Shown: positions 6,412 to 60,302 of the stretch, piece by piece
Layout of the letters: every line of letters begins with the position of its first letter
Numbering within the stretch: position 1 is the stretch's first letter
Assembly (NCBI GenBank): GCA_963665235.2
Contig: CAXXLX010000002.1
Location: forward strand, 768,001-832,000
DNA length: 64,000 nucleotides
Source: Candidatus Poribacteria bacterium
GTDB taxonomy: Bacteria; Poribacteria; WGA-4E; WGA-3G
Reading direction: 5' to 3'
Made by a program: the position numbers and the translations under genes
Notes under the pieces: generated by a model
Databases searched by the model: none
What the model saw: only the letters and a program-made list of their open reading frames with translations
Told to the model about the DNA's origin: nothing

Positions 6412-6554
6412 TAATGTATATAACGTGAGCTCGGTGTAAGAAATAAGTTTTGATAAATAGAGAGCTCCTATGTTATAACGCGAAGAGGGCTGGCGCGGAT
6501 ATGCTACCAGCCCTATATCCAAGAAAAAGGCAAAAATGGCTTTCTGCGTTTTAC

Positions 6555-7047
6555 CTCTCCTCCGCTACTACATCCCAATCCTTTAGGTTTGGGATGTAGT
6601 AGCGGCGCATGAGTTGAAATTTTAATTTGACTTTTTCTAAAAACTGTGGTATAATTATACTGACACTTTTGGATAGCATTGTCACCCTGCACAAACTCAG
6701 TGCAGGTGCTATCCCTCACCCGTGACAAGGTGTGTAGTGTTAGTGTTAGACCACTTTAAAAGTATATCGGGCAGTTAACGCATAATTGAGCGAAAGCTTG
6801 TATCGTGGCGGGGGTGAAAGTCCGCACGTTGTATTGCTGCCACTCTCTTAAATATCGTTCGGATGATTCTATTTCGAACGAGGCACGCGGGGATAGCCAG
6901 GAACCTTCTGACCTGATATGCCCGGAGGATTTTTCACCTGCGGGGAATCGCGTGCGGGTGGAGCGACAGTTAGACGGTAAACTCTCTGAGTAAACCGCAG
7001 TTGCTACGAAACCGAAGCCCACGCCTTTAGGCGTTGGGTGCTATCAC
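6555..7047 (+). mobile_element. ORF-less (non-autonomous) IS200/IS605-derived element
   Basis: Left hairpin ccgctactacatcccaa...ttgggatgtagtagcgg; 45 bp (6591-6635) identical to 58931-58975; right end gaagcccacgcctttaggcgttgggtgctaTCAC resembles the right end of the element at 26064. Confidence 0.8.
6659..7047 (+). ncRNA. Putative structured ncRNA (omega/reRNA-like 3' part) inside the ORF-less IS element
   Basis: TTGACT-17-TATAAT promoter (6627-6655) followed by many complementary helices and two pseudoknot-type pairings; no credible ORF. Confidence 0.55.
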
Positions 7048-8960
7048 AGTTCATCTATAGAGACTTCTACGGTCCCTTTTTCATCGGCGATAAAGTATCG
7101 GTGATCAGGGAACTTTTCTGCAAGCTTCCGTTTTCCGTTTTTTCTATGTTTAGCGTATATATGTGATTTTGCAAAGGGCGCGTTAAATGGATAATGTACT
7201 CGAAGTATGTATTCCTCTTTCACGAAAACAAGTGCTTTTTCCATACTGTTTTCGTCAAGGTATTTTTGAATTGTTACGTCTACCCCATAAGCTTGATATG
7301 ATTTTACTGTTGCCGGCACATTGAAAAGAAAAGCAAATAGAAAAAGACTTATAAGTATTACACACAGTATATTTTGTGCATGTGCGTAAGAGACTATTTT
7401 CTGCCAAGATGTCAGGAGCCGCGTGCTCAATGCAATCCCCCGGCTTGTTAAGAGAATTAGGGCTGGAAACGTTTCATACACGTACCTTGGCCCGAAGGTG
7501 AACTCGTTGAAGAAATAGAAAACCTGTGCCATGAGCAATGCCCCTATCCATCCGACAAGTAGCCATTCCCACTTTTGTTTTTTTCCGAATGTGAGGTAAA
7601 GACAAACAAAAAAGAGCGAAGGCATTGGCCATTCAAACAGATAATAGTTAAGTCCGTTTAGATTGCCATTCACGTATTTCAGTCCTTGTGTGAGCGTGTG
7701 TGATTGCTCCACCCACGGATCTTGGTGAAAGCCTGGGTAGTGTCCTTTACCATGTGCGGCGATATATCCAAAAAGGAGCGGGTCTCCTGTCGTTGCGAAG
7801 TTGTAAGCGAGAAATGCCAACCCCATGACAAGGATAGGGATTGCACCTATAAGGATATGCCGGCGTGACAATTCTTTCCGCATGACAATTGCTGCGATGC
7901 CCATTAGGATACAAATCCATGCAGCTGTATAGGGCCTGCACAGCAGGGCAATGCCTAAAGCCGTCCCGCAGGCCAACGCTGAAAACAGTGGACGTTTATC
8001 TTTAACCACCCGGACGAAACTCAGAAAAGCCACAGTTATGAAAAAGAGGGTTGAACTGTGTGACATGAACTCTGAGGACATGAAGAGAAAAAAGCTGCTT
8101 GCGGTTGCCAACAAAGCAGAAAGTTTTGCGATGTTCTCCTCATAAAGCTCCTTGGCTATCAGATAGATACACACGATTGTCAACGCACCCAATAGTGGAT
8201 TCACAAGCCAAGCAAGACCGAAAAGTACACCGAATGCAAGTACAGCGGGGTATCCTGGCGGGAACTGTGTATACCAGCTGTCGTCAAGAATAACATGTAG
8301 GTTTTCAAAAAATTGCGGTTCTGGAGGTACCGGGGCAGAAAGTGTACCGTGCGCGAACAGGCGCGCTTGAAATAGGTACGCGCAGCCATCTATAGTCCCC
8401 GGCACGCCATCGAAAAGATGCCATGAGATTAAGCCACATATTAACAAAGCACTCGCAAATAATCCGCCTATAAAAGCTCGAGGTGGCATGTCGCGCATCC
8501 ATTGAAAAAGGCGAAAACAGATTGTCCGAATTCGGGATAGTCGCATGCAGAGCAATCCGCGAAAACATAGGGCGATACCGACACCGTTGACAATCATGCT
8601 ATACCCACTGGGTAGAAGTCCGACAGCATTGAAACGTGCGGTGTTAAAGGACGCATGTAGTGGCAACACACAGATAAAAAGCAGGATGCTAAAGACAACA
8701 ACGTGAACCCTCCGTTGACTCAACACTTGGAAGTCCGGTATTATCAAAAGCAGCATGTAAAACAGAAGTCCCCCGGCAATTAGATTGACACCCCAGATTG
8801 GAAAAGAGATTGACAGATACGAAGATTCCTGCCAAGAAATTAGCACTTTGTCATCAAGAATAACAAAGTGCTTTTTTATCCAATATCCAAGGAAAAGGAA
8901 AAAGAGCGCACCGATAAAATAACTCGCTATACGACACAATTGAATGAGTCTGGATTTCAT
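7044..8960 (-). CDS. GT-C fold (PMT/ArnT-like, GT39/GT83) membrane glycosyltransferase
   Basis: Polytopic membrane protein with D...Y..QA, PPGYP, RPY and GPRY motifs. Confidence 0.75.
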   Translation of the reverse strand: MKSRLIQLCRIASYFIGALFFLFLGYWIKKHFVILDDKVLISWQESSYLSISFPIWGVNLIAGGLLFYMLLLIIPDFQVLSQRRVHVVVFSILLFICVLPLHASFNTARFNAVGLLPSGYSMIVNGVGIALCFRGLLCMRLSRIRTICFRLFQWMRDMPPRAFIGGLFASALLICGLISWHLFDGVPGTIDGCAYLFQARLFAHGTLSAPVPPEPQFFENLHVILDDSWYTQFPPGYPAVLAFGVLFGLAWLVNPLLGALTIVCIYLIAKELYEENIAKLSALLATASSFFLFMSSEFMSHSSTLFFITVAFLSFVRVVKDKRPLFSALACGTALGIALLCRPYTAAWICILMGIAAIVMRKELSRRHILIGAIPILVMGLAFLAYNFATTGDPLLFGYIAAHGKGHYPGFHQDPWVEQSHTLTQGLKYVNGNLNGLNYYLFEWPMPSLFFVCLYLTFGKKQKWEWLLVGWIGALLMAQVFYFFNEFTFGPRYVYETFPALILLTSRGIALSTRLLTSWQKIVSYAHAQNILCVILISLFLFAFLFNVPATVKSYQAYGVDVTIQKYLDENSMEKALVFVKEEYILRVHYPFNAPFAKSHIYAKHRKNGKRKLAEKFPDHRYFIADEKGTVEVSIDEL

Positions 8961-39226: not shown

Positions 39227-41155
39227 ATGAGCAAGGTCATTGGAATTGATTTAGGAACAACAAATTCATGTGTAGCTGTCTTGGAAAGTGGCGATGCCAA
39301 GGTAATAGAGAACGCGGAAGGGAATCGGACGACTCCCTCGGTTGTCGGTTTTACCAAAGAGGGGGAGCGTCCCGTCGGGCAGGTCGCTAAGAGACAAGCT
39401 ATCACGAATCCCGAAAACACAATTTTTTCCATCAAACGGTTCATGGGACGAAAATATAGCGAGATTGGTGACGATGCCTCCCGTGTGCCTTATGAATTAA
39501 AAAGCGATAAAGATGGCAATATTGCGGTAGATATCGAGGGCAAAACGTATTCACCTCCTGAGATATCCGCGATGGTTTTGCGGAAGATGAAGGAAACCGC
39601 GGAGGCATACCTCGGTGAAGAGGTCACGCAAGCGGTTATCACTGTCCCCGCCTACTTTAACGATTCCCAACGTCAGGCGACAGCCGATGCGGGCAAAATC
39701 GCCGGGTTAGAGGTGCAGCGGATTATCAACGAACCGACTGCCGCCTCTCTTGCCTACGGGCTCCAAACTGAAGGCGAGCGGAAAATCGCCGTCTACGACC
39801 TCGGCGGCGGCACGTTCGATATCTCTATTCTTGAAATCGGCGATGGGGTCTTTGAAGTCAAAAGTACAAACGGGGATACACACCTCGGCGGTGACGACTT
39901 CGACCAAGCTGTTATTGACTGGATGGCACAGGAATTCCTCAGCAGCCAAGGCATCGACCTACGGAAAGATCAGATGGCTTTACAACGTTTGAAGGAGGCA
40001 GCGGAAACCGCAAAATGTGAACTCTCTAGCACGTTACAGACCGATATCAACCTCCCGTTTATCACTGTCGATGCAAGTGGGCCGAAGCATCTTAACTTGA
40101 CGCTCACCCGTGCGAAACTTGAGCAGATTACAGATGAACTCGTCGAACGTTCGCTCCAACCGTGCCGACAAGCCCTCGCGGATGCAGAAATGCAACCCTC
40201 CGATATTGACGAAGTTATACTGGTCGGGGGACAGACCCGGATGCCGAAAGTACAGGAAGCGGTGCAGCAGCTCTTCGAAAAAGAGCCGCACAAAGGGGTC
40301 AACCCGGACGAAGTCGTTGCAATCGGGGCAGCAATTCAGGGGGGTGTGCTCGCTGGCGATTCCGAAGTGAAAGATATTTTGTTACTGGATGTAACGCCAC
40401 TTTCACTCGGTATTGAAACGCTTGGCGGTATGTTTACGCGGTTAATCGAAAAGAATACCACAATTCCGACTAAGAAATCGGAGAAGTTCACAACCGCAGA
40501 AGATAGCCAGACAGCCGTCGATGTGCACGTCCTTCAGGGAGAACGGGAACAGGCGGTCTACAACAAAACCATCGGTCGGTTCCGCCTGAGCGATATACCC
40601 CCCGCTCCAAGAGGTGTACCTCAGATAGAGGTTACGTTTGATATTGACGCAAACGGAATTCTCAATGTGTCTGCGAAGGATACGGCAACGGGGAAGGAGC
40701 AGAAGATTACAATTACTGCCTCCTCCGGCCTCACGGACGCTGAAATTGAACAGATGGTGAAGGATGCTGAAGCGCACGCGGAAGAGGATAAACAGAAAAG
40801 AGAAGAGGTTGAAACTCGCAACCGTGCGGATTCTATGGTCTACGAAACCGAGAAAAACCTACAGGAATTTGGCGATAAGGTTGACGACGCTACGAAGGAA
40901 AAGGTGAGCACCGCGGTGGAACGTGTCAAGGAGGCCTTAGCAGCAAACAATCACGACGAAATCCAGTCCGCAACCGATGCACTCACACAAGCCTGGCATG
41001 AGGCTTCCGCACAGCTGTATCAACAGACAACAGCGGATGCCCCGGAGGACGCGCCTGAAGACGCACCCACCGAAGACGCTGATGATGACAATGTCGTTGA
41101 TGCTGAATACGAAGTCGTTGACGAGGACACGAATGAAGATGCGGAGAAAAATTAG
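39227..41155 (+). CDS. dnaK: Chaperone DnaK (canonical Hsp70)
   Basis: [48 protein letters not shown], lid and acidic tail. Confidence 0.98.
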
Positions 41156-48278: not shown

Positions 48279-49649
48279 TTAAGATTTAAAACGTACATCC
48301 CAAGCACATCGAAACCCGATATTTGCGGTAAACCTTGCTGAGTACTGAGAGAAGAGCGTGGTGAGAAAAGGCGAACCTCCATGGCGTGCAGCAATTTGAT
48401 TAGGTTTTGACGAAGTAAAATACGAACCACCTCGCAATACGCGATTATTTGTAATCTCCCAGAAGTCCGAAATTAATATGTCAAAATCCTCTTTCGAGTT
48501 TACACCCGCAATTGGATTCTGTAGCGGTGAATTTCCATAAAAAGCGATTTGATACGCATCAAGACACCACTCCCATACGTTTCCTACTATATCATGCAAA
48601 CCGTAATTGTTTGCTGGATATTTTCCGACAGATATAGTTTCACCAGCATTCTCACCACAATGCGCTTTGTCTGAATTCAAAGCGTCGCCCCATGGGTATT
48701 TTTGGCCTGTTAAGCCCCCCCGTGCTGCTTTTTCCCATTCCGCTTCTGACAGTAAACGTTTACCGCTCCATTTTGCATACGCCATCGCCGCATACCAACT
48801 GACATGAGTCACAGGATGGTCCCCTTTTCCAGCCGGAAAGTTGTTCCTATTCCAATGTTTTAGATAGTTTCCATCGTGGTATCTTCCAAGTCCAAGGATA
48901 GATAACCTCTTTTTTGCCTTATTCCACGCGTCCCGTTCCGATAGCTTCCGCCATTTGGGATTAGCCTCAATGAACATCTTATATTGTGCATTCGTCACCG
49001 GATATTTATCCACACAGAACGCATCAACGTAGACTGCATGCTCTCGATTTTCACGGGTATTCCACCATTCTTGGCTTCCCATTTGAAACTCGCCCGCTGG
49101 GATGAGCACCATATCTTCTGGGACTGAGACGCTTAAGGATGTTTGTTCGGAGGTGGAAGATTCCTCGGTTTCAGGTGTAGTCAATTCCTCTACCGAGATA
49201 GGCTCGGTCGGTTGTGGTATTTTAGTTTGTAGTGCTGCGATATGTTCCACCCGTTTTTGTGGGTCTTTCAACGTATCCCGTGCTTGATTTAGAACGGTTC
49301 GCCACTGTTCCTGCGTCCTACCGTCCGGACGCGGAAGTCCGCCCGCCTGCAACGAGGCACTATACTGCTTTTTATGTGCTTCATCAATGCGGGTCAAGAT
49401 GAAGGTTTCATCCCGATTTTCAAATTCATCTACCGAAAACCCAAGCACTTCAAAATAGTTTACACTTTCCCCCACAATTAGTCCTGAGGCTTTCAGAATC
49501 TCATCCGCTTCCGCTGCGGAGAGCCCAAACTGCTGCACCGCTTGCTGGAGAAGCCCGATGCGCTGTTCGTCGGTAATCGTTTTTGATAACGTTTTGAGTG
49601 TGTTGACAACTCTAATGAATTCGTCGTGGCTATCGGTATGTTGGTTCAT
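48279..49649 (-). CDS. J-like domain + FGE-sulfatase (SUMF1) domain protein, paralogue 3
   Basis: NYFEVLG...RPDG...LNQARDTLKDP.KR; IPAGEFQMG, EAEWEKAARGG, GNVWEW, RVLRGGS...GFRC. Confidence 0.85.
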   Translation of the reverse strand: MNQHTDSHDEFIRVVNTLKTLSKTITDEQRIGLLQQAVQQFGLSAAEADEILKASGLIVGESVNYFEVLGFSVDEFENRDETFILTRIDEAHKKQYSASLQAGGLPRPDGRTQEQWRTVLNQARDTLKDPQKRVEHIAALQTKIPQPTEPISVEELTTPETEESSTSEQTSLSVSVPEDMVLIPAGEFQMGSQEWWNTRENREHAVYVDAFCVDKYPVTNAQYKMFIEANPKWRKLSERDAWNKAKKRLSILGLGRYHDGNYLKHWNRNNFPAGKGDHPVTHVSWYAAMAYAKWSGKRLLSEAEWEKAARGGLTGQKYPWGDALNSDKAHCGENAGETISVGKYPANNYGLHDIVGNVWEWCLDAYQIAFYGNSPLQNPIAGVNSKEDFDILISDFWEITNNRVLRGGSYFTSSKPNQIAARHGGSPFLTTLFSQYSARFTANIGFRCAWDVRFKS

Positions 49650-49826
49650 GTTTTCCGTTCTCTAAATTCTGTTTTTTTCGGGCATCTGCGGATTACCATA
49701 GAGGGGATTCAGCTAGGCGAGACTGGTTAATAGTTGCGTTTAATTCGTAGCGTTCAGCAACTGACTCGACAAGCTCCAGTAACCATCGGTATGTTGGTTC
49801 ATGTTTTCCGTTCTCTAAATTCTGTT
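49632..49826. repeat. 42-bp direct repeat (49632-49673, 49785-49826) containing the start of paralogue 3
   Basis: atcggtatgttggttcatgttttccgttctctaaattctgtt exact twice. Confidence 0.9.
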
Positions 49827-50310
49827 AGGTTTTTTCGCTCTCACTTCTCGCTCATGCAAAACTCCTTCGCTTGTGCAGATAGGGAGATAATGTGTCTACT
49901 TCAGGTATTTGATCGCCATCGTAGTCAAGATATTGAACCCTTCCGATATGAAATTGCTCGTTGGTTCCGAGACTTTTTACAAAAGACTCAAAGCGAGTTT
50001 TAATTGCAATACCTCCTTGGGTGCTAGAGTACAATTTCCACATCGCCTCTGATTCGTGTGTGCTTTCGTGCCAACAACTAATCAACGTAAAACGCGGTAA
50101 TTGCTGCATCACGGGGGCATACATATTGCTTTCTTCATCACGGAACGAATCTATGTTTCTCCTAGGTAATGAGCCCTCAAAAGGGTCCCCCAATTTGTCC
50201 GCCCTTGCGAAAAATAGGGCACCATTTTCCAAAATTGAGACAAATTTTGTGAAATCCATGTACCTCCACAAAATTGCGTCTGTGTGAGGGAGGTTGTGAA
50301 CACAAAACAT
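49693..50310 (-). pseudogene. DUF2971-like gene, frameshifted and internally disrupted
   Basis: LWRYMDFTKF, DPFEG, SCWH...ESEAMWKLY, KR.SF/HEREVR frameshift; detached tail LLELVESVAERYEL...PLW*. Confidence 0.7.
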
Positions 50311-50515
50311 AAATAAAAATTCCGGTACTAGTTGACGTGCGGGTTTTGCCCAATCTGAGCATTTGTTAGTGTAACAGATTCTATGCAATAAGACTTCTAC
50401 TTCGTGCCCTGCGGCATATAAGGTTGTCGCTCGAGACTTCTTATCCTTGTCAATTTCTAAGATCTACTCAGGACCAGGTGAGATGTTTACGCGTTCCGCT
50501 ACGTGCACAGGCAGT

Positions 50516-50947
50516 TCACTTAGATGATACATTTCGCTTCCGTCCAGTTGGAACTGTTGCCCAATTAGCGTGTCCCCTATAGACCATGACCGCATTAATG
50601 AAGAAATGGGTTGGGTAACGCCAGACATAGGCGACGACTCTTTCATCAGAAATCTCAATCGGCAGGAGCGTCACCCGTTTGCCCTCTATGAGCTCCTTCA
50701 AATATCTAGCGGCTTTTTCGTCTTCGGGGGTGCCTTTTTCCGGGGGGATTATATTCGCTAAACGCACCTTTTCGAACCCCCTTAGTTTTTCCATCCGTTG
50801 TATAGGAGTTTCGGGCAGAAGTGGAAGCATTTTAATGTGTTCAAGAAAACTGCGGTTTTCTTGACTGGAAAATCGCATAACAGTTTCGGTAGGACTCACC
50901 TCAAAAGTATCGCCATCAATGACTTTTTCTACATTATACACATACAT
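50516..50947 (-). CDS. Thermonuclease (SNase)-like protein
   Basis: VIDGDTF, VRL.NI.PPE, L..LI.GK.V, R.VAYV, IN..MV..GHA. Confidence 0.75.
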   Translation of the reverse strand: MYVYNVEKVIDGDTFEVSPTETVMRFSSQENRSFLEHIKMLPLLPETPIQRMEKLRGFEKVRLANIIPPEKGTPEDEKAARYLKELIEGKRVTLLPIEISDERVVAYVWRYPTHFFINAVMVYRGHANWATVPTGRKRNVSSK

Positions 50948-51066: not shown

Positions 51067-52380
51067 TTAAGAGGTGACTGCCCTGACACATCGGAAGCCA
51101 TAGCTGTAATATGTGAAATTGGGGGGAGCCCAACCGCAATAGGCGACTTGCGCGGCACGCTCGCTACTTGCCCAAGACCCCCCACGCAGTACACGAAACG
51201 TTGCAATATGCAAAAAATTGGTTGTGATTTCATCAATGCTGTCAACCATTAAACCGGGGTGTCGACGTGGGGTATTACCATCATGTTCATCAAGACACCA
51301 TTCCCACACATTACCCGCCATATCATACACGCCATAGTCGTTAGGTGGATACTTGCCAACGGGGGTTGTTCTTCCGAGCTGCATGCCGTAATTCGCAAGG
51401 TTTATATCAATTCCATCGCCCCATGGATATATTTTCCCTACTAATCCGCCACGTGCCGCTTTTTCCCATTCCGCTTCAGTTGGCAACCGTTTATTTGTCC
51501 ATTGTGCGTAAGCCATGGCGGCATACCAACTCACATTTACAACCGGATAATCTGCTTTCCCTCTAGGCGGAGTATTGCCATTCCAAGTATTTAAGTAGTT
51601 CCCATCGTGGTAATCTTTAACGATTGTATTTTTCTGCCACTGAGGATTAGCCTCTATAAACGCCTTATATTGTGCATTGGTCACCGGATATTTATCAATC
51701 AAAAATGCATCCATGAAAATTGTTTGTGCGGGCATTTCGCTCGTATTTTCCGCTTTGTCCTGCTCACCCATCTGAAACTCACCGGCAGGAATGAACACCA
51801 TACTATCAGGGACATCGAGATTGGGTGGAACTGATACCGGGTCGGTATTTGAAAGGGGTAATACGGAGATAGTTTCGTGTGTACTTTCTGGCGTTGGCTC
51901 TGCGTTCTCAAGCTCGATTTCGGGGGAAGGCAGGTCAGTCACGGATATCTCTAATGTATCTGCGTCGCTCAGGAATGTCTCCATATATTCTCGCCGCTTT
52001 TGTGTATCTACTAAAGTATCCCGCGCTTGATTTAAAACAGTTCGCCACTGTTCTTCTGTTTTACCATCGGGACGCACGCGCGCACCGGCACCCAACGATG
52101 CCCTATAGCACTTATCGTGAGCAGACTTAACAACGCTTACGATTGCTTGCTCATCTAAACCTTGGATATTTTCTATTGAAAGGTCCAGTACCTCAAAATA
52201 GTTTATCTCCTCCCCGACTACCAAACCGAGAGACTTCAGAATCTCTGTGGCTTCTTCAACAGCCAGCTCGTAATTCTGGACTGCCTGTCTCAGCAACCCA
52301 CGCCGTTGAATATCTGTAATAGTCGGTGATACATTTTTGAAGGTATTAAGGAGTTCAATAAATTCATCACGTTTGGACAT
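51067..52380 (-). CDS. J-like domain + FGE-sulfatase domain protein, paralogue 2
   Basis: NYFEVLD...RPDG...LNQARDTLVD..KRREY; full SUMF1 motif set. Confidence 0.85.
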   Translation of the reverse strand: MSKRDEFIELLNTFKNVSPTITDIQRRGLLRQAVQNYELAVEEATEILKSLGLVVGEEINYFEVLDLSIENIQGLDEQAIVSVVKSAHDKCYRASLGAGARVRPDGKTEEQWRTVLNQARDTLVDTQKRREYMETFLSDADTLEISVTDLPSPEIELENAEPTPESTHETISVLPLSNTDPVSVPPNLDVPDSMVFIPAGEFQMGEQDKAENTSEMPAQTIFMDAFLIDKYPVTNAQYKAFIEANPQWQKNTIVKDYHDGNYLNTWNGNTPPRGKADYPVVNVSWYAAMAYAQWTNKRLPTEAEWEKAARGGLVGKIYPWGDGIDINLANYGMQLGRTTPVGKYPPNDYGVYDMAGNVWEWCLDEHDGNTPRRHPGLMVDSIDEITTNFLHIATFRVLRGGSWASSERAAQVAYCGWAPPNFTYYSYGFRCVRAVTS

Positions 52381-52414
52381 ATCTCATTTCACTTTAAAAA
52401 ATGTGACAAAACCT

Positions 52415-53701
52415 TTAAGATTGGATATCCTTTACACACCGAAAGCCGAAGGTAGGGAGCGTGTCCGTTGGATTACCTTTGAACCGGTAGGCACACCGCA
52501 CACCTGCGGAATCAATTCCCCATGAACCGCCACGCAACACGCGAGTGCTTTTAACGCTTTCGAAGTTTCGCGTTATCCACTCCACACTGTCTATGGCAGA
52601 GAAGGGATTTTGCGGTGAGGAATTCACATAGAAATAGGCATGATACGAATCCAGGCACCACTCCCACACGTTTCCACTTATGTCGTAGAGACCGTATCTG
52701 TTAGCAGGATAATGACCGACTGGTGTGGTATCACCAACATAATAGAAGTAGTTTGCATCGTCAGCACTTATTGAATCTCCCCACGGATATTTCTTGCCTG
52801 TCAAACCGCCCCGTGCGGCCTTCTCCCATTCCGCCTCTGTCGGTAAACGTTTCCCTTTCCACTGTGCGTACGCCATCGCTGCATACCAACTCACATTTAC
52901 AACCGGATGCTCACCTTTTCCACTCGGGTAGGTTTCATCCTCCCAATGCTTCAGGTAGCCTCCATCGTGATAGGCACTAGGAATATGGTCTTTGAACCAC
53001 CGCCGTTTGTGCCACTGTGGGTTAGCATCGACGAATTCCTTGAATTGTGTATTGGTTACCAAGTATTTGTCCATGAAAAATGCGTCGAGAGAAACGGTGT
53101 GAACCGGATGTTCGTCTTCGTTTGCTGCCGGGTCATCACTGCCCATTTGAAAATTGCCCGCTGGGATGAACGCCATGTCTGGCGGTGCGTCGATATTGGG
53201 TGTAACTATCTGATGATTTAATTCCTCAGTCTCAGTTAGCTCAGGCGGAGGCGATGGGTTTTCTTCCGGGAGTGCTTCTGCTTCAGTCTGCTGGAACATA
53301 GCGGCGTGTTCGTGCCTTTTCTGGGGGGCAATCAACGTATCCCGTGCTTGATTTAGAACGGTTCGCCACTGTTCCTCTGTTCTGCCATCGGCGCGGGGAC
53401 GACCCCCCGCCTTTAATGAAGCACTGTATAGGTTTTTGTGCGCTGCTGCCACGCGACTCATGACAGTCGTGTCGTTTAAGTTTTGAATCTCAGCGATTGA
53501 GAATCCCAATACCTCAAAATAGTTCACACGTTCACCGATACCTATTCCCGAGGCGTTGAAAATGTCAGTTGCTTCTTCAACAGTGAGACCGTGCTGCTGA
53601 ACGCCTAATCGGAGAAACCCTTTGCGTTGTTCGGCGGTAATTGTCGGTGAGGCGGTTTTAAGCGCCTTAAGAAATGCTATGAATTCCTCGCGTTTAGACA
53701 T
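52415..53701 (-). CDS. J-like domain + FGE-sulfatase domain protein, paralogue 1
   Basis: NYFEVLG...RADG...LNQARDTLIAPQKR; full SUMF1 motif set. Confidence 0.85.
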   Translation of the reverse strand: MSKREEFIAFLKALKTASPTITAEQRKGFLRLGVQQHGLTVEEATDIFNASGIGIGERVNYFEVLGFSIAEIQNLNDTTVMSRVAAAHKNLYSASLKAGGRPRADGRTEEQWRTVLNQARDTLIAPQKRHEHAAMFQQTEAEALPEENPSPPPELTETEELNHQIVTPNIDAPPDMAFIPAGNFQMGSDDPAANEDEHPVHTVSLDAFFMDKYLVTNTQFKEFVDANPQWHKRRWFKDHIPSAYHDGGYLKHWEDETYPSGKGEHPVVNVSWYAAMAYAQWKGKRLPTEAEWEKAARGGLTGKKYPWGDSISADDANYFYYVGDTTPVGHYPANRYGLYDISGNVWEWCLDSYHAYFYVNSSPQNPFSAIDSVEWITRNFESVKSTRVLRGGSWGIDSAGVRCAYRFKGNPTDTLPTFGFRCVKDIQS

Positions 53702-53716
53702 AGGTTAAACCTTAAA

Positions 53717-55312
53717 CTATTCAACAACAAGGTCTTGTAGCTCCGTTTTTGCCTGTGCAACCTCTTCTTCATCGAGCGTAGGTCTCTCGATAATGGAAAA
53801 GATATCGTAAACCGCCGTGGGACCATCCTCGTCAAGGGATTTTGCTGTCACCTCAAGATTCTGATCCAGATTATATTTGTAGTTTACTTCAATCGGAGAC
53901 CCTTGCGGCAATCCATCGGGCAGTTCAAGGGTACATTCCCCCAATTTATAGTCATCAAATAGCTCAATTTCGCTTTTGTGCCTATCCTGTTCAAGCCCCT
54001 GCACCACTTCGATTAACGCCGAAGTCTGATTCTCATCTACTGTCAAAAACTTATCCGATCTTTCACACGGTATGGCTGTCATTTTGGGAATCATGACATG
54101 GATAATATGTTCGCGCTGTGGATTGAGCACGACGAGCCCGAGGTTGTGTGTAGCTCCATCTGTCACCGTTACCTTCGGTGCACCGTCCGGACCGAGAAAT
54201 CTATCAATAACAGCGTCAGGCATGTCTACTGTTTCGGGATTTCCCTCCGTGAGTTGGCGGAGCGTTCCCTGAATTGCTGCGCCAATCGCGACGACCTCGT
54301 CAGGATTGACTTCGTGTGGATTAATCTCTTTACCGCTGATTGCGGCGATCATTTCCTGGACCATGGGCATCCGAGTTGAGCCGCCCACCAATAGGATTTT
54401 GTCAACATCCGCCCAGGCCATTTCTGCCTCAGATAGGACAACGTCACACAAGGAGCGACACCTTTCGAGCAGGTCTGCGGTAAGTTCTGTAAATTTTTCG
54501 CCCGTTAATTCTACACGGGTCGTCTTTCCGTTGTATCCACAGACAATTAAGGCGCGCTGCCGCAAGGACAAAGATTCTTTTGCCCCGATTGCATCCATTT
54601 GAAGGTCCTGATATGTGTGAAGATCAGCTAGCGGATTTTCGCCGTGTTCAATTTCAAACATTTCAGCGACGTGTGTGATGATTTTATCGTCCCAATCCTT
54701 GCCGCCCAACCTATGGTCCCCGTTTGTCGCAAGCATCTGTATTTCCGATTCAGAAACCTTCATGATGGTTACGTCAAATGTTCCGCCGCCGAGGTCGAAC
54801 ACGAAGACATTTTGGTCGCTGCCCAATTGGTCAATGCCGTATGCTAGGGCGGCAGCGGTGGGCTCGTTTAGGACTTGCAGGACGTTCAATCCTGCGATTT
54901 TTCCAGCGTTGCGGGTTGCTTCCCTTTCAGCGTCATGAAAATAGGCGGGAACGGTGATGACCGCATCGGTAACCTCTTCATTCAGATAGGTTTCAGCATC
55001 CTGCTTGAGTTTTGTTAAGATAAGGGCGGAGAGTTCTTCAGGTGAATAATCCTTGTCGTTGAATGAGCGAAAAAATTCCTCTTTGGATTTACCCATCTCG
55101 CGTTTGACAAATTCCACAATCTGTTCGGGAACAGCTCTCGCGTTCTGTTTCGCAATCTTCCCAACCGTTATAAGAGTGTCCTCAAACATAATTACCGACG
55201 GGGTAATCCGCTCATTTTCTATATTGGGAATAATTTCCGCTTGTCCATGTTCATTGATGTGCGCTATCGCTGAAAACGTTGTCCCGAGATCGATTCCTAC
55301 AACCTTACCCAT
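53717..55312 (-). CDS. Atypical Hsp70 (no helical lid)
   Basis: [37 protein letters not shown]; 531 aa, ends shortly after the beta-SBD. Confidence 0.92.
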   Translation of the reverse strand: MGKVVGIDLGTTFSAIAHINEHGQAEIIPNIENERITPSVIMFEDTLITVGKIAKQNARAVPEQIVEFVKREMGKSKEEFFRSFNDKDYSPEELSALILTKLKQDAETYLNEEVTDAVITVPAYFHDAEREATRNAGKIAGLNVLQVLNEPTAAALAYGIDQLGSDQNVFVFDLGGGTFDVTIMKVSESEIQMLATNGDHRLGGKDWDDKIITHVAEMFEIEHGENPLADLHTYQDLQMDAIGAKESLSLRQRALIVCGYNGKTTRVELTGEKFTELTADLLERCRSLCDVVLSEAEMAWADVDKILLVGGSTRMPMVQEMIAAISGKEINPHEVNPDEVVAIGAAIQGTLRQLTEGNPETVDMPDAVIDRFLGPDGAPKVTVTDGATHNLGLVVLNPQREHIIHVMIPKMTAIPCERSDKFLTVDENQTSALIEVVQGLEQDRHKSEIELFDDYKLGECTLELPDGLPQGSPIEVNYKYNLDQNLEVTAKSLDEDGPTAVYDIFSIIERPTLDEEEVAQAKTELQDLVVE

Positions 55313-56000
55313 CCGTGTTACCTCCTTTCTCCGCTAAAGGCGGTTGCTCTGTAGCAGGCGTATAACGAAAGATAGTGACCTCCTCCGGTCGGAACACTTT
55401 ATCTCGCCAGTTGAACCCGATTTTATGAACTTCCGCAATTTTGCCATCCTGCTCCGGATCATCGGACGAGATGACCTTCCGTGTTTTGTGCAATTGTCGG
55501 TCAAGTGTTTGTAGCGTATCCTTATAAGGGGTCACGTCCATACGGTATAGCACTTCTTCAAGTTCAAAACGGAAGTTCTCCAAATTCTTTTGATAACGTG
55601 CCAGCTCATCCGGAAGACTATTCGCCTCGTTATCAACTATAATCTCATTGAGTTGTGTTTCAAGTAAAACAAAACTATCGTAAAGCTGGAGCAGGTTATG
55701 GATAATCGGTTTGTGAAGCACTTCAAGCAGGAATTGCTCCTTATACTCTTTCATCTCAGCGTACATTTTGTCGAACATCTGTGTCTGATTCTGGTTCCGC
55801 GCAATTTCCTTTTCAAATAAAGCTTGCAACGTTGTTAACTGTTGATTTAGCTCCGTGAGCGCAGTTGATTGAAGTAATTCAGCATCGGTTTGCCGCCGTG
55901 TATCAGCAGCGGCCCTATTTTCTTGACGGCGTAAAGCTGCGTCCGTTTCCACACCGGGCTTTGGTCTGGTATCCTCTTTTCCATTCACGTCGTTAGACAA
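55305..56000 (-). CDS. grpE: GrpE-like nucleotide exchange factor
   Basis: Coiled coil, LL.LYD, H.......D...I.EV...GF....VFRP..V; AAGGAGG RBS before TTG at 56000; overlaps Hsp70 start. Confidence 0.8.
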   Translation of the reverse strand: MSNDVNGKEDTRPKPGVETDAALRRQENRAAADTRRQTDAELLQSTALTELNQQLTTLQALFEKEIARNQNQTQMFDKMYAEMKEYKEQFLLEVLHKPIIHNLLQLYDSFVLLETQLNEIIVDNEANSLPDELARYQKNLENFRFELEEVLYRMDVTPYKDTLQTLDRQLHKTRKVISSDDPEQDGKIAEVHKIGFNWRDKVFRPEEVTIFRYTPATEQPPLAEKGGNTDG

Positions 56001-56218
56001 AATTGAATCCTCCTTGCATAGACAAAAGTGTTTTACTGCCAATAGAATATCATAAACAGAAAAAAAAGTCACGTTTAAAATTCGATTCGGGGAGTGTCCA
56101 TTTTGTCAAAGGAATAGAGAGGAAGTTTGAAGGTTGGAAGGATAGCTCACCGCTTAAATGGGACGTTTGTAGGCGCGCTTACAAAGAACGCCTACAAACG
56201 ATAGAGGGGTGCCTATTT

Positions 56219-56410
56219 TAACGTGAGTTTGGAAAAAGTTTTCCCTTAGTATTCGGGCAACCAGCTCGCTCCGTAGGGACGATATATTTATAGAAAAAGA
56301 CGTTTCCATCCTAATTCTTAGTCCCAGTATTCGGGCAAGCAGCCCGCTCTTTAAGGACGATATGTTTATAGGGGTTAGGCAAACCGACATTTATTATCAA
56401 ACTCACGTTA
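56219..56410. mobile_element. MITE (taacgtgagtttg TIR family) with two internal REP-like units
   Basis: taacgtgagtttg...caaactcacgtta; internal unit is the reverse complement of 60691-60756. Confidence 0.8.
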
Positions 56411-58873
56411 TTTTAGAATTAACATACGACGCGTCGCTGAAAAGGAGCCCGCCTGAATCTGATAGAAATAGATACCGGAAGCGACATGTTCACTTAAGTT
56501 GTTACTGCCATCCCAATAGGCAGCCCGTGAACGGTTGCGATAATATCCTGCCCCCTTATGCCCTAGGTCAAGCGAGCGAACAACGGTGCCAGCGACATCG
56601 TAAATGGTAACCCTGACTGTCGCCGCCTCACTGAGTTGGTAGGGTATCCAAGTTTCCGGATTAAATGGATTCGGATAATTTTGTAGAAGACGCGGTGTTT
56701 CAGGGTGAGGCGACATTTCAAGCGTAACAGAGATGAAGCCTGTTTCAAGCATATCCGGCGTAACAGTGTATACTTGCGAGTCCCCTATAATATTACCCTC
56801 TGAATCAGCAATCCGAATTTCGAGAATATCACCGGCTTGAACGACAGCGTTCTGCATCAAATCACCGAAGGCAGCAGCGAAATACCCACGCCGCACAACA
56901 TCAATAACGGTGGTATGGGTCCGCTTGTTTGTTGCCCTGACAGTGTAACCTTCGGCAGTGTAGGGAAGCTTTCCGCTGACGACAAATGCCCACGTGTTCC
57001 CTGAACTGTTTACAGCGGGTGCAGCGAAGGCAGTCGGGGCATTTCCCCAAGCGTTTCCTCTGAACACAACAGTTTGGGCGGTTGGGACGTTAACAATATA
57101 TCCTTGTCCGCCCATAATTTCAAACCCATCGTCCGGTGCGTCTGCTGTAAACCCTTCAAATCTTTGATGCTGCGTATTGAACCGGATAAGCACTGTCGCA
57201 GCCAATTCTGTCATCAAAGTTCTAGCGGTGTAGGGTAAGTTCGGCTTAAGCGGAAGCGCAATCATATTCAAACCTTTTGCGAGCTCAACCGAAAAGGCGG
57301 GCTGTTCAAGAATAGCGAAGATAGTCGTAGTTCCGCTAACTTCGTTCCCCGTAACGAGGAGTGGATATTCTATAGGGCTGTCCGCTGCGTTGATGTACAG
57401 AATACCCTCCGGCCCGTGATCGCCGGCTGTGCTCTCTTCAGCATTGCCAGTGAAATCCCGATTGTTAATATACTGTACGAATTGGGGATGGGACGGGTCG
57501 GATATATCGTAAACGACAATTCCGCCGACGCGTTCGAACCCGATGAAAGCGTAAGTGTGTGCTCCAATCTGTCCGACCGCTATCCCTTCAGGCTCAGGGC
57601 CTTTATCGTCACTTCGCGTGTCGAAAGAATCGTTTTTGTCGTTGTTTGCATTGAAATCGTTCGGAATTAACGTGGCGGTGAGCTGTTCAAAGGCATCACC
57701 GCTATCAAAGATGAGTTGGCCATCTGCGCTCCAAATGGAGAAGGACCGCGCGCCATAATTGTAAATTGCTTCATGGAGACCATCACCATCCGCGTCTCCG
57801 GAGGCTGTTGTGGTTTTCAGTCGGCCTAGATTCTCAGATTCTTGGAGTTCTTCAGCATCAGTAAAAACCGTCGGATCCAATTCTAAATCGGCCACGCGAA
57901 CTTCCTCACTAAAACAGTCGTAGTCGCGAGCATCCCCTTCGTTTGCTGTAATCAGGAATGTTTCCCCGCCGGTCGTAAACGCTACGATGGCATCAGGTTG
58001 ATACATTCCACTGACCGGCCAGTTAGCGATATTAATTCCATCATCTTTGTCGCTTGCATCGAGACCACTGCCCTCCGCATAATTTTTGTATCCGAGCGGA
58101 AAGATGTTTGTCACCGTCGCGCTTGCTATGTTTAACACAGCAATTGCATTGTTTTCTTGAAGGACAACCCACGCTGTGCTAGAATCGGGAGCTACAGCGA
58201 TGTACTCCGGTTCGAGGTCCTGTGCAACAGTTGCCCCAGGGCCAAAGATGCGAATATCCGGGTGGATATTTTCGTGAGTGAAATGCCTAAAGTCGGCTGT
58301 ACGAACGTCGTTTTGGGTGAGATTCGCCACGCCATTTTTGAGTTCGATAACGCTTATTGAACCCTCCGGATCGCCGGCTTCCCCCGGAACACAATATTCG
58401 TCCGGTTCACCTTCATTTGCGACAAGAAGATAACGTCCATTAGGCGTGAAGATTAGCATATCCGGCAATGGGCCTACTGTCACCGCATTTAGAAATTCAC
58501 CGTCCGGGTTGAAAAAGACAGCTTTACCTGGGGCCTGTTTCAGCTCGGCTTCTATTGCGACCGCTACGACCCCATTATGCACAGCAACACTGTTAGCACT
58601 AGCACCATAAGCGGCAATGTCGATTTGAAAAAGGCGAACTGGCGTAGAGGGGGTGTTAATGTCCAGAACGTCGATATTACCGGAGTCGGCGTTCACTACA
58701 TAAAGCCGCTGGGTTTTGACATCATGTGCAACAATTTCTGCGGCGGATTCGTCAAAAATTCCACTTTGATATGTCCCGAGAGGTTGAATATCAAGTTGTG
58801 AAATAGCTGCTGAATTAAAGATAAATAATAGAAGTAAGCAGACCATTGACTTACTGCAAACTATCTTTTGCAT
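56408..58873 (-). CDS. Choice-of-anchor I (alkaline-phosphatase-associated propeller) protein with FlgD/T9SS-like C-terminal domain
   Basis: AAEIVAHD, ANEGEP, DLEPEYI, MYQPD, RSDDKGPEPEG; LLQNYPNPFNPETWIPYQL...SGIYFYQI. Confidence 0.88.
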   Translation of the reverse strand: MQKIVCSKSMVCLLLLFIFNSAAISQLDIQPLGTYQSGIFDESAAEIVAHDVKTQRLYVVNADSGNIDVLDINTPSTPVRLFQIDIAAYGASANSVAVHNGVVAVAIEAELKQAPGKAVFFNPDGEFLNAVTVGPLPDMLIFTPNGRYLLVANEGEPDEYCVPGEAGDPEGSISVIELKNGVANLTQNDVRTADFRHFTHENIHPDIRIFGPGATVAQDLEPEYIAVAPDSSTAWVVLQENNAIAVLNIASATVTNIFPLGYKNYAEGSGLDASDKDDGINIANWPVSGMYQPDAIVAFTTGGETFLITANEGDARDYDCFSEEVRVADLELDPTVFTDAEELQESENLGRLKTTTASGDADGDGLHEAIYNYGARSFSIWSADGQLIFDSGDAFEQLTATLIPNDFNANNDKNDSFDTRSDDKGPEPEGIAVGQIGAHTYAFIGFERVGGIVVYDISDPSHPQFVQYINNRDFTGNAEESTAGDHGPEGILYINAADSPIEYPLLVTGNEVSGTTTIFAILEQPAFSVELAKGLNMIALPLKPNLPYTARTLMTELAATVLIRFNTQHQRFEGFTADAPDDGFEIMGGQGYIVNVPTAQTVVFRGNAWGNAPTAFAAPAVNSSGNTWAFVVSGKLPYTAEGYTVRATNKRTHTTVIDVVRRGYFAAAFGDLMQNAVVQAGDILEIRIADSEGNIIGDSQVYTVTPDMLETGFISVTLEMSPHPETPRLLQNYPNPFNPETWIPYQLSEAATVRVTIYDVAGTVVRSLDLGHKGAGYYRNRSRAAYWDGSNNLSEHVASGIYFYQIQAGSFSATRRMLILK

Positions 58874-58893: not shown

Positions 58894-60302
58894 CAAATCT
58901 TCCGCTACAAAACCCCCATGCTTTAGCTGGGGGATGTAGTAGCGGCGCATGAGTTGAAATTTTAATTTGACTTTTCCTGAAAAATGGGGTATACTCTATT
59001 TAATGCCTTAGCGGAGAATCTATAGACTTCTCCGCCCCTTTTTAGAGGCAGGTAGCAACTTTTCAAGGCAGGATACCCTTAGATGTATACCACAAAATAC
59101 AAACTTTTTCGTGCCCCGCGTAATCGTAATCTCAAGCGTTTAACGTGGGTGGCCCATGATGTTTGGAACTATTTTTTAGGTTGGCAGCGGACGCGCTATT
59201 CTCTTGGTCTTGCGTATATGTCGCTTCCTGAGATGTCGCGTGCCTTTACCGTCCTTAGGAACTCACATCCTGAAGTGTTTTCGCATTGGCGTGAGTTAGA
59301 CTCTTGGGCGGCGCGTGATATACTGCGGCGTTTAGACACCGGGTATCAGCGTTTTTTTAAGTGTATTGCGAAGCGTCCGCCTAAGTTTCGTTCATGGCGC
59401 AAACCGTATTCATTCACAATGTCCCCCTCTGGCTATAGTTTCTATGGTGATAGGGTCCGTATAATGGAAAAACAATATCGGTTTAATCTAAGCCGCGAGA
59501 TAGTAGGTAATATTAAGACAGTCACTATCAAAGCAGATAGCGTTGGTGACTTCTATATGTGTGTTGTAACAGATGACACCGTATCTGAAATCCTACCTAA
59601 GACGGGTAGTGCTGCAGGGTATGATTTCGGTATCAAAACGATGTTCACCTGTTCCGATGGCACAGCCTATGCGTCTCCTGAGTTCTATAAAACCTCTATG
59701 GCGGATTTGTCTGTAGCCCAACGTGCCCATGCTAAGAAAGTAAAGGGTAGCAACAACTGTGAGCGTTCCCGCTTAAATGTGGCGCGCAAACACCGTAAAA
59801 TCAAGAGACAACGTGAGGATCATCATTGGAAACTCGCGAAGCGTTTTGTGCATGAACAAGATCACCTCTGTTTTGAGACGTTGACTTTTGAGGGGATGAA
59901 ACGGTTGTGGGGGTGTCAAGTTTCTGATATTGCGCCCTACTCGTTTCATCAAAAGTTGCAACATCAAGCGGTCAAACACGGTAAAGAGGTTCACTATATT
60001 GACCGTTTTGAACCGACTTCTAAGACTTGTAGCCACTGTGGACAGCGAAAACAGCAGCTGGACTTGTCTGTTCGTCAATGGTGTTGTTCTACTTGCCATC
60101 AGAAACACCATCGTGACGTTAACGCTGCGATAAATATTTTAAAGGTTGGGGCGTCAACCTTTGGATTAGAGGATGTCAGCCTTGCTATTGCGAGCAGCCC
60201 TCGCAGACTTCACCCGAAGTCTATACCCCACAATCCGCACCAGAAAGCATGGGATTCACTTTCAAAAGAATCCCCCTTGCTTTAGCTGGGGGAGTATGTC
60301 AA
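58894..60302 (+). mobile_element. IS200/IS605-family tnpB-only element (IS1341-like)
   Basis: Matching hairpins ccccc.tgctttagctggggg at both ends; right end ...gagtatgTCAA; TTGACT-17-TATACT promoter. Confidence 0.9.
59083..60285 (+). CDS. tnpB: TnpB RNA-guided nuclease (canonical D-E-D)
   Basis: GYDFG, LCFETL, PTSKTCSHC...CSTC, HRDVNAAINI. Confidence 0.93.
   Translation: MYTTKYKLFRAPRNRNLKRLTWVAHDVWNYFLGWQRTRYSLGLAYMSLPEMSRAFTVLRNSHPEVFSHWRELDSWAARDILRRLDTGYQRFFKCIAKRPPKFRSWRKPYSFTMSPSGYSFYGDRVRIMEKQYRFNLSREIVGNIKTVTIKADSVGDFYMCVVTDDTVSEILPKTGSAAGYDFGIKTMFTCSDGTAYASPEFYKTSMADLSVAQRAHAKKVKGSNNCERSRLNVARKHRKIKRQREDHHWKLAKRFVHEQDHLCFETLTFEGMKRLWGCQVSDIAPYSFHQKLQHQAVKHGKEVHYIDRFEPTSKTCSHCGQRKQQLDLSVRQWCCSTCHQKHHRDVNAAINILKVGASTFGLEDVSLAIASSPRRLHPKSIPHNPHQKAWDSLSKESPLL

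Follow-up and report, generated by a model that had tools for sequence, protein, structure and literature searches.

A minus-strand operon lying in a 64,000-nucleotide stretch of a Candidatus Poribacteria genome (contig CAXXLX010000002.1, positions 768,001 to 832,000; hereafter the window) encodes a GrpE-like factor, a specialised Hsp70 and a series of adaptor proteins, and the account that we lean towards is that together they form a self-contained Hsp70 machine. Here a lidless Hsp70 would be served by adaptors that join a J-like docking domain, devoid of the HPD motif, to a non-enzymatic head of the FGE-sulfatase family, the docking having been re-wired. Cross-talk with the housekeeping DnaK/DnaJ pair would be unlikely because the D35-R167 and H33-linker contacts are lost on both sides. 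As far as the alignments tell, both partners have lost the canonical HPD-R167-linker relay at the level of the family; insulation from the housekeeping pair is plausible, and the system may represent a naturally insulated chaperone circuit. The relatives of the source bacterium are sponge symbionts. The analysis follows up an earlier reading of the DNA letters (the sequence-only reading), which had proposed that the interface of the two partners changed in concert.

The first gene of the operon (55305-56072, minus strand like the rest) codes for the GrpE-like nucleotide-exchange factor, residues 67-234 of which match Pfam GrpE with an E-value of 8.6e-12 (45.5 bits against a gathering cut-off of 25.8), while its score against the NCBIfam GrpE equivalogs, 19.8, is far under the cut-off of 176. 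Its 3' end overlaps by 8 nt the start of the Hsp70 gene (53717-55312), which specifies 531 residues comprising a nucleotide-binding domain (NBD), the interdomain linker and the beta part of the substrate-binding domain (SBD-beta). The protein matches Pfam HSP70 (PF00012) at E 1.3e-119 across profile positions 1-490 of 599 and nowhere beyond, and it is for this reason that we describe it as having no helical lid; the catalytic ATPase residues are retained, within a recognisable NBD and SBD-beta. For reference we used the canonical DnaK of the same window (39227-41155, plus strand, 642 residues, Pfam HSP70 E 3.9e-270), which is not a member of the operon. Prokaryotic Hsp70s are described as falling into three types, DnaK, HscA and HscC (PMC8215388). 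The operon protein remains under the DnaK equivalog cut-offs (NF001413 and TIGR02350; 420 bits against 648 and 407 against 822) and under that of HscA (329 bits against 708.55 for TIGR01991), and is set apart from DnaK proper by Q146, by its VTVT linker and by the missing lid. It is likewise distinct from the HscC type, being 33% identical to Escherichia coli HscC and separate from it on a quick tree in which HscC forms a long branch, having a GrpE-like gene beside it and being accompanied by partners without an HPE motif.

The contacts described for the solved DnaJ-DnaK complex (Hsp70 interface residues are given throughout in E. coli DnaK numbering) are those of H33 with the backbone of L391, P34 with P419, D35 with both R167 and Q378, and K48 with D477 (PMC8215388). 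DnaK R167H is reported to suppress DnaJ D35N, and DnaK residues 206-219 and 391-393 are reported to make the largest contribution to binding (PMC5519331). In an alignment that includes E. coli K-12 DnaK from NC_000913.3, the R167 column of the operon Hsp70 is occupied by Q146 (codon 54875-54877), in the middle of the string GLNVLQVLNEP at residues 141-151. The linker columns 389-393 change from VLLLD to VTVTD, within the sequence KVTVTDGATHNLG at residues 380-392 (54137-54175). The canonical DnaK of the window keeps the Arg (its R165) and the LLLD linker. Both the Gln and the altered linker had been pointed out in the sequence-only reading, and the alignment bears it out on each; the strings that it quoted (RPDG, RPDG, RADG, GLNVLQVLNEP and the linker) are all present in the genes to which it assigned them.

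These changes are properties of the family. Among the 120 homologues listed, the R167 column holds Gln in 117 and His in two, the motif not being found in the remaining one, and the linker pattern DGATHxLG recurs in 114. The 38 members of the clade that were placed on the tree carry Gln (34), Ala (2), His (1) or Asn (1) in that column; at E206 they have Lys (17), Arg (9), Gln (6) or Asn (3), and at D477 Lys (23), Ser (5), Arg (4) or Thr (3). In their linkers L390 is replaced by Thr in 24, L391 by Val in all 38 and L392 by Thr in 25, and further along N415 has become Met in 36 of the 38 and T417 either Ala (17) or Pro (16). Kept residues are Q378 (35), P419 (38), K414 (36), N170 (36), E171 (38) and T173 (34). 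Taken column by column, the Hsp70 surface appears to be broadly re-wired, with no clean pairwise swap.

The genes for adaptor paralogue 1 (52415-53701, 428 residues) and paralogue 2 (51067-52380, 437 residues) follow that of the Hsp70 consecutively on the minus strand, and paralogue 3 (48279-49649, 456 residues) is reached beyond two small inserted open reading frames (ORFs), outside the interval 51067-55312 that the sequence-only reading covered. Paralogues 2 and 3 are 54-55% identical to paralogue 1, which consists of a three-helix N-terminal subdomain, a J-like domain (residues 57-140, 53282-53533, supported by structure prediction with AlphaFold2 (AF2), by VIA-align and by hhalign), a low-complexity linker and a head of the FGE-sulfatase fold; a J-like domain and an FGE-sulfatase head are likewise joined in paralogue 2. 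Read directly from the sequences, the motif that we refer to as RxD is RADG in paralogue 1 (residues 103-106, nt 53384-53395, context GGRPRADGRT) and RPDG in both paralogue 2 (residues 103-106, nt 52063-52074, context GARVRPDGKT) and paralogue 3 (residues 107-110, nt 49320-49331, context GGLPRPDGRT).

To describe the fold, the N-domain of paralogue 1 was modelled with AF2 from an alignment of 79 sequences filtered at below 72% identity, giving a mean predicted local distance difference test (pLDDT) of 88.2 and a predicted TM score (pTM) of 0.58. The model shows the N-terminal three-helix subdomain at residues 3-17, 23-37 and 41-51 and, in the J-like part, helices at 61-64, 69-73, 77-97, 109-124 and 126-137. 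Superposition with VIA-align gave a best Z of 10.4 (4wb7_A; root-mean-square deviation 2.2 Å over 71 residues, model range 58-140), a value to be read with the caution that Z below about 13 for helical folds may mean a generic arrangement; model residues 57-140 span whole J-domains, and 38 of the 50 rows listed are titled J-domain, DnaJ, Hsp40 or HscB. Profile comparison with hhalign between the family and the four HPD-bearing J-domains of the same genome returned a probability of 92.3% (E 5.6e-7, 69 columns). A HMMER search of the PDB sequences with the family profile listed five entries at E<=10, four of which are the E. coli DnaJ J-domain at a non-significant E of 0.51-1.5. Pfam DnaJ (PF00226) finds no match in the three window proteins at E<=0.01, and no Pfam model of any kind recognises the N-terminal region of about 140 residues in the window adaptors at E<=10; among 93 more distant family representatives, picked from 145 by a length of 230-1100 residues and a limit on total residues, PF00226 matches 19. 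Paralogue 3 also has a weak match to HscB (TIGR00714) at residues 115-159, with E 0.0011 and under the cut-off. On the predicted structure, the assignment of the N-terminal module of the adaptors to a true J-domain fold is sound.

The position of RxD within this fold is more particular than had been supposed. The sequence-only reading placed RPD and RAD where HPD is expected, and regarded a location outside the helix II-III loop as evidence against itself. In the model the loop comprises residues 98-108 (AGGRPRADGRT) and includes the motif, so that this part of the claim stands. The site homologous to HPD is a different one, however: both the HMMER alignment with the DnaJ J-domain and the hhalign alignment with the genome's own four HPD J-domains match HPD with L96-K97-A98, where helix II ends. 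RxD is found about 7 residues downstream of this site, opposite the canonical 'NPxD', in a loop that is about 3 residues longer than the canonical one. HP[DE] is absent from all 79 rows of the N-domain alignment and from the II-III loop of all 214 J-like domains of the fetched loci, two of the 214 carrying HP[DE] near the C terminus, outside the loop.

The loop is nonetheless under strong constraint. R103, D105 and G106 are each at least 90% conserved in the 79 non-redundant N-domains. The middle residue of RxD, in 199 domain matches, is Pro in 92, Ala in 45, Ser in 24, Thr in 9, Val in 7, Leu in 6, Arg and Lys in 3 each, and His and Gln in 1 each (8 unmatched), and on these counts it is free, not a conserved Pro. 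Column entropies over 141 adaptors average 1.3-1.4 bits in the N-module, 3.1 in the linker and 2.0-2.4 in the C-terminal third of the FGE head. The lowest values of the N-module, 0.61-0.86 bits, fall at residues 91-120, i.e. the end of helix II, the loop and helix III, which is the pattern expected of a working interface. No part of the adaptor is better conserved than the motif G-G-x-x-R-x-D-G taken with helix III.

Relatives of the operon Hsp70 were collected from 75 loci of species-representative genomes, most of them titled Candidatus Poribacteria and the others belonging to Latescibacteria, Terriglobia, Verrucomicrobiota/Chthoniobacterales, Planctomycetota (Kuenenia) and one Actinomycetota. 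In 52 of the 75 loci the gene immediately upstream, on the same strand, is GrpE-like (phmmer E<=1e-5). The J-like genes downstream number none in 2 loci, one in 31, two in 5, three in 11, four in 7, five in 6 and at least six in 13, six being a lower bound set by the 8-kb flank. The adaptor family is rare, with 390 representative clusters at E<=0.001 among 1.84 billion proteins. In locus L056 two J-like matches fall in a single protein (6526-8760).

When the Hsp70 residue and the J-like loop were tabulated together for 75 sources (74 loci and the window), the partner Hsp70 never had Arg at the matched position wherever the motif was readable, showing Gln, His, Asn, Ser or Ala instead. Gln occurs with an RxD loop in 53 sources, three of which also have a separate Arg-type Hsp70 and two an extra match that is unreadable at the motif, and His with an RxD loop in 4. 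A Verrucomicrobiota-type loop (PLKNQPSNPLAQLL, no RxD) is paired with Gln in 6 sources and with Asn in 1, the Planctomycetota loops are paired with Ala in 3, and a GED loop at a Latescibacteria locus is paired with Gln. Of the remainder, 3 combine Gln with a J-like gene that is frameshifted, unreadable or without a match found, 1 has Ser and no J-like gene found before the contig end, and in 3, whatever their loop, the Hsp70 motif was not found. On this tabulation absence of the Arg is accompanied by absence of HPD throughout the clade, whereas RxD is limited to a single branch. The Planctomycetota proteins have two J-type domains, of which the second, in one orthologue, is seen by Pfam DnaJ at E 2.7e-12, and HPD is present in neither. 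In L068 (9614-11218) and L069 (9620-11266), both from Planctomycetota, the two HPD-less J-type domains are followed by a hydrophobic stretch and two PDZ domains. A possible recurrence of the three-helix N-terminal subdomain after the J-like domain of Verrucomicrobiota proteins was looked for and set aside, the subdomain hidden Markov model giving only E>=13.

A quick maximum-likelihood tree was built of 47 rows: 38 clade members, five 'second' Hsp70s, E. coli DnaK, HscA and HscC, and the window's DnaK. The 38 members lie on one side of a branch with an SH-aLRT support of 96. Their sister (98) is formed by Arg-keeping Hsp70s of about 700 residues that are encoded upstream in five loci, and the clade and this sister stand apart from DnaK/HscA and from HscC with its long branch. 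With the tree rooted at its midpoint, the Arg would have been lost once at the base of the clade and RxD gained later in an inner subclade; the two therefore look like separate events. RxD is a lineage-specific motif of the Poribacteria-type branch, which would have arisen after the loss of the Arg, and is not the residue-for-residue successor of HPD. The second Hsp70s have Arg in the 167 column and an MRISD linker, and their genes lie upstream of the GrpE-like gene (L045:4781-7048, L050:4915-7035, L052:4989-7067, L053:4951-7038 and L075:6035-8116); the five loci may represent a two-Hsp70 version of the system.

Contact between the two partners was assessed by complex prediction with the full operon Hsp70 (38-row alignment) and the N-domain (79-row alignment). 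The score was 0.56, with 0.56, 0.01 and 0.65 in the three runs and 0.06 for the best of 3 controls, and it passes a mark that is reached by 58 of 80 solved complexes and by 2 of 110 mismatched pairs, scores of 0.60 or lower being those of only 7 of these 80 solved complexes and of both passing mismatches. Between the runs at least 59% of contacts are shared, and the partner's pLDDT is no lower than 77. The predicted complex gives weak support to docking. In the mechanism that we propose, the adaptors would dock through helix II, the loop and helix III onto the NBD/linker/SBD-beta face of their own Hsp70 by way of re-wired contacts, would pass on to it whatever the variable head has bound, and the GrpE-like protein would reset the Hsp70 cycle.

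A number of observations weigh against a private, re-wired machine of this kind. In one complex run out of three the score was as low as 0.01, and the predictor may have passed the pair on the strength of solved Hsp70-J complexes that it had learnt. With regard to the fold, the Z-scores lie in the range to which the caution given above applies, Foldseek found no match to the model in the PDB at E<=0.001 (its top rows are nearly all J-domains, the best at E 0.17), and Pfam DnaJ finds nothing in the N-terminal 134-150 residues of the window proteins even at E<=10. The net charge of helix II in the J-like domains, on average +0.18 (range -4 to +3, n=79), compares with +1 to +4 in canonical J-domains and 0 in E. 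coli HscB, only a modest drop. The K48-equivalent residue is a conserved Arg, R113, which would be non-complementary to the Lys or Arg of the D477 column if the old contact were kept, though that column falls in a variable loop. The quick tree includes few reference rows and is rooted at its midpoint. At the level of residues RxD and Gln do not covary across the 75 sources: Gln, Asn and Ala also occur with RxD-less loops in the Verrucomicrobiota, the Planctomycetota and the Latescibacteria GED locus; this was a tabulation of about 70 low-diversity pairs, too few for a proper direct coupling analysis. The covariation across homologues on which the sequence-only reading had counted is thus not borne out, RxD being confined to the inner subclade. 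Its claim that both partners changed together survives for the family as a whole (no HP[DE] in the loop, no Arg in the Hsp70) but not for the individual pair of residues. Finally, docking of a canonical J-domain on the operon Hsp70 might still be feasible, since Q378, P419, K414, N170 and T173 are retained.

The last of these points leads to the view that the pair is not insulated at all, its changes tuning rates while housekeeping DnaJ and DnaK cross-react and the operon adds capacity or targeting to the general network. The J fold is retained, and the unchanged contact residues just listed are many. Nevertheless, we regard this as quite improbable: D35-R167, described as the pair best backed by genetics (PMC5519331), is lost on both sides, the E206 and D477 columns are charge-reversed in most members, and the HscC/DjlC pair, in which the changes are milder (Arg kept, HPE for HPD), is reported to be partner-specific already (PMC8215388). 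A housekeeping set and the private set do coexist in the genome. Three of the assembly's seven J-like N-domains fall in the window and the other four outside it; beside them there is a single specialised Hsp70, a single canonical DnaK and a partial Hsp70-like match. PF00226 is matched five times, and the four strong matches read YHPDKNP.

A second view accepts the association and denies it a catalytic meaning. According to this, the J-like domain is a mere tether or regulator that, in the manner of eukaryotic HPD-less J-like proteins, no longer triggers the ATPase, the Hsp70 has changed because a disused contact is under relaxed constraint, and the RxD loop serves the N-terminal subdomain, the GrpE-like protein or another adaptor. 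Swapping HPD residues is described as abolishing ATPase stimulation in all systems tested (PMC8215388), HPD-less J-like proteins such as Pam16 and DNAJB13 are on record (PMC10410713), and RxD is absent from the orthologues of Verrucomicrobiota and Planctomycetota; as those operons are otherwise the same, RxD is dispensable for the system as such. Against this, hydrolysis that is never triggered would hardly account for the retention of the full cycle set (E171 is invariant among the 38 clade members, and most loci have their own GrpE-like gene), and nowhere is the adaptor more constrained than in the loop and helix III. On balance we consider the tether rather unlikely. At the opposite extreme would be a fully orthogonal circuit, in which hydrolysis is triggered without the HPD/R167 relay by the G-G-x-x-R-x-D-G loop acting on a re-wired NBD/linker surface, and in which a private channel couples expandable lectin-like, ankyrin, PDZ or propeller heads to one motor. 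This too we hold to be doubtful; if true, it would amount to a programmable recognition-and-remodelling system, immune-like or symbiosis-related, that spares housekeeping proteostasis.

What the family offers is a natural test of whether Hsp70 hydrolysis can be triggered in another way, and its operon pair is a candidate insulated chaperone/co-chaperone pair for synthetic biology. HPD is regarded as the defining and indispensable feature of a J-domain, and here a conserved family keeps the full Hsp70 cycle set without HPD or the Arg that reads it. A 2026 review gives the proportion of wild-type J-domains with HPD as 99% and refers to bacterial DnaK derivatives as largely unexplored 'dark matter' (PMC13580251), of which the operon provides a concrete, testable case; a survey of about 280,000 J-proteins is described as having removed HPD-less sequences (PMC10410713). 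Our literature search found no paper on this operon or on a bacterial pair of HPD-less J and Arg-less Hsp70, the supplementary gene-neighbourhood files of the eLife papers, which possibly list the architecture, lying outside the search.

The heads of the three window paralogues match Pfam FGE-sulfatase at E 9.8e-66 (paralogue 1, residues 174-424), 4.5e-64 and 5e-58, at residues 192-433 in paralogue 2 and 178-450 in paralogue 3. When one head was aligned to the solved formylglycine-generating enzymes (FGEs) 6s07 and 2afy, the column of the first catalytic Cys was found to hold Ile and the second to fall in a gap, and the heads of the other two paralogues are also without the Cys pair after the GGS motif. 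Lacking both catalytic Cys residues, these C-type-lectin-like heads are therefore non-catalytic binding modules, not formylglycine-generating enzymes. Of the 93 representatives, 26 have an FGE-sulfatase head and 9 an ankyrin one; PDZ, PEGA and PG-binding heads number 3 each, HEAT and TPR heads 2 each. WD40-type propeller heads are found among close homologues, and ankyrin giants of 885 and 1877 residues occur within the loci.

The variety of heads bears on a further alternative, in which the Hsp70 has the FGE-head proteins as its clients or regulated cargo, held inactive or monomeric until release for example, and they are not co-chaperones that deliver targets. Lidless Hsp70s have been suggested to act as sensors of misfolded protein and not as folders (2025 preprint, PMC12642450), and a single Hsp70 is shared by seven adaptors. 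Yet the module common to all head types (FGE, ankyrin, PDZ, HEAT, TPR and WD40) is a J fold, as in co-chaperone docking, and not an extended Hsp70-binding peptide, and we consider the cargo explanation very improbable.

Diversification of the heads by a diversity-generating retroelement (DGR) was considered and rejected. The only repeats in the 47-57 kb region of the window reflect paralogy between genes at 66-75% identity, the single reverse transcriptase of the assembly is about 510 kb away, and in the 13 kb surrounding it the adaptor genes have best matches of 22 and 14 nt. This reverse transcriptase gene is adjoined by a long, internally repetitive stretch (L084:189-3495, on contig 2 of the same genome, about 510 kb from the window) with self-matches of approximately 70% identity at offsets of about 75 nt.

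The cellular role to which we give most credence, at even chances, is target-specific remodelling or sensing in a setting of conflict or symbiosis; a sulfatase-related role is distinctly unlikely, and something else altogether is a fair way short of probable without being negligible. Kaur, Burroughs, Iyer and Aravind described GAP1-N2 GTPase conflict systems with neighbourhoods of HSP70, GrpE and a DnaJ-FNIII fusion, and interpreted FGS (FGE-sulfatase) heads as lectin-like invader sensors coupled to NTPase switches (PMC7159879, PMC8195603). The present system similarly pairs an NTPase switch with several paralogous heads of variable type (FGS, ankyrin or beta-propeller) and brings HSP70, GrpE and a J fusion into one neighbourhood, so linking chaperones to heads for which invader sensing has been proposed elsewhere. 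It differs in that no constant GTPase, STAND, EAD or effector neighbour and no DGR link were found in the operon loci examined, and in that the passages of those papers on the J component call it a DnaJ domain, with no mention there of HPD loss. Searches of PADLOC-DB 2.0 gave no match better than E 0.004 for the Hsp70, GrpE-like and adaptor proteins, and those with the 93 representatives only repeat-type models (PDC-M72A 9, Ankyrin 8, MzaA 5); no Zorya model is among the 11 PADLOC families that these representatives match. The 2025 preprint cited above describes defence modules in which EACC1 proteases are fused to lidless DnaK-like domains and lists FGE domains as sensors (PMC12642450). The likeness is that of a lidless DnaK-like protein in a putative defence setting; those proteins are, however, fused to a protease and a pore-forming effector and are given as 50% identical to DnaK, whereas the operon Hsp70 stands alone with its own GrpE-like factor and J-like adaptors and has no protease.

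Set against known chaperone systems, the operon takes over the three roles of the canonical DnaK-DnaJ-GrpE triad (an Hsp70, a J-fold partner and a GrpE-family factor), and its Hsp70 is 39% identical to the window's DnaK with the ATPase residues kept. It departs from the triad in the absence of the lid, in Gln for R167 and VTVTD for VLLLD, in partners that have no HPD and are invisible to Pfam DnaJ, and in a single Hsp70 serving a tandem array of partners. E. coli HscC with DjlB and DjlC is comparable as a short Hsp70 paralogue that has its own neighbouring J-type partners, with a motif off HPD (HPE in DjlC) and a similar deletion in lobe I of the NBD (PMC8215388), but HscC keeps Arg in the 167 column and an ILTD linker, is on its separate long branch, and is described as probably GrpE-independent (PMC8215388). 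HscA-HscB resembles the operon in being a dedicated pair, and HscB turns up both in the structural comparison (4it5, Z 8.4, 29% identity over 73 residues) and in the weak TIGR00714 hit; in contrast, HscA keeps R167 and the LLLD linker, HscB keeps HPD, and there is no isc context at the operon. The eukaryotic J-like proteins Pam16/Tim16, DNAJB13 and ARC6 are described as sharing a J fold without the HPD triad. As described, they act with or on a canonical J/Hsp70 pair, whereas the operon has an Hsp70 from which the reading residue has gone, and encodes no partner with HPD.

The two small ORFs between paralogues 2 and 3 occupy 49852-50947 on the minus strand. One is SNase-like (50516-50947, Pfam SNase E 1.9e-4) and the other, of 178 residues (49852-50388), is a match to PDC-S31, a PADLOC candidate (E 8.9e-15). 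Next to the arrays, SNase-like homologues recur in 4 further loci and homologues of the PDC-S31 type in 2, both kinds being present in L036, and the inserted ORFs may be a mobile cassette or an accessory effector. An exact direct repeat of 42 nt, at 49632-49673 and 49785-49826 (153 nt apart), looks like a junction duplication at their edge, its first copy spanning the start codon of paralogue 3. In the intergenic region upstream of the GrpE-like gene a 46-nt element occurs twice (56248-56293 and 56326-56371, 87% identical, 78 nt apart) and is possibly a regulatory repeat for the operon. A TnpB/IS605 OrfB-like gene with Cas12f1-like TNB and OrfB_IS605 domains is located at 59083-60285 on the plus strand, some 3 kb away from the operon. 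The operon's immediate upstream neighbour, at 56408-58873 on the minus strand, codes for an 821-residue protein that carries both a choice-of-anchor I domain and a type IX secretion C-terminal sorting domain, homologues of which are found nearby in L047 and L049.

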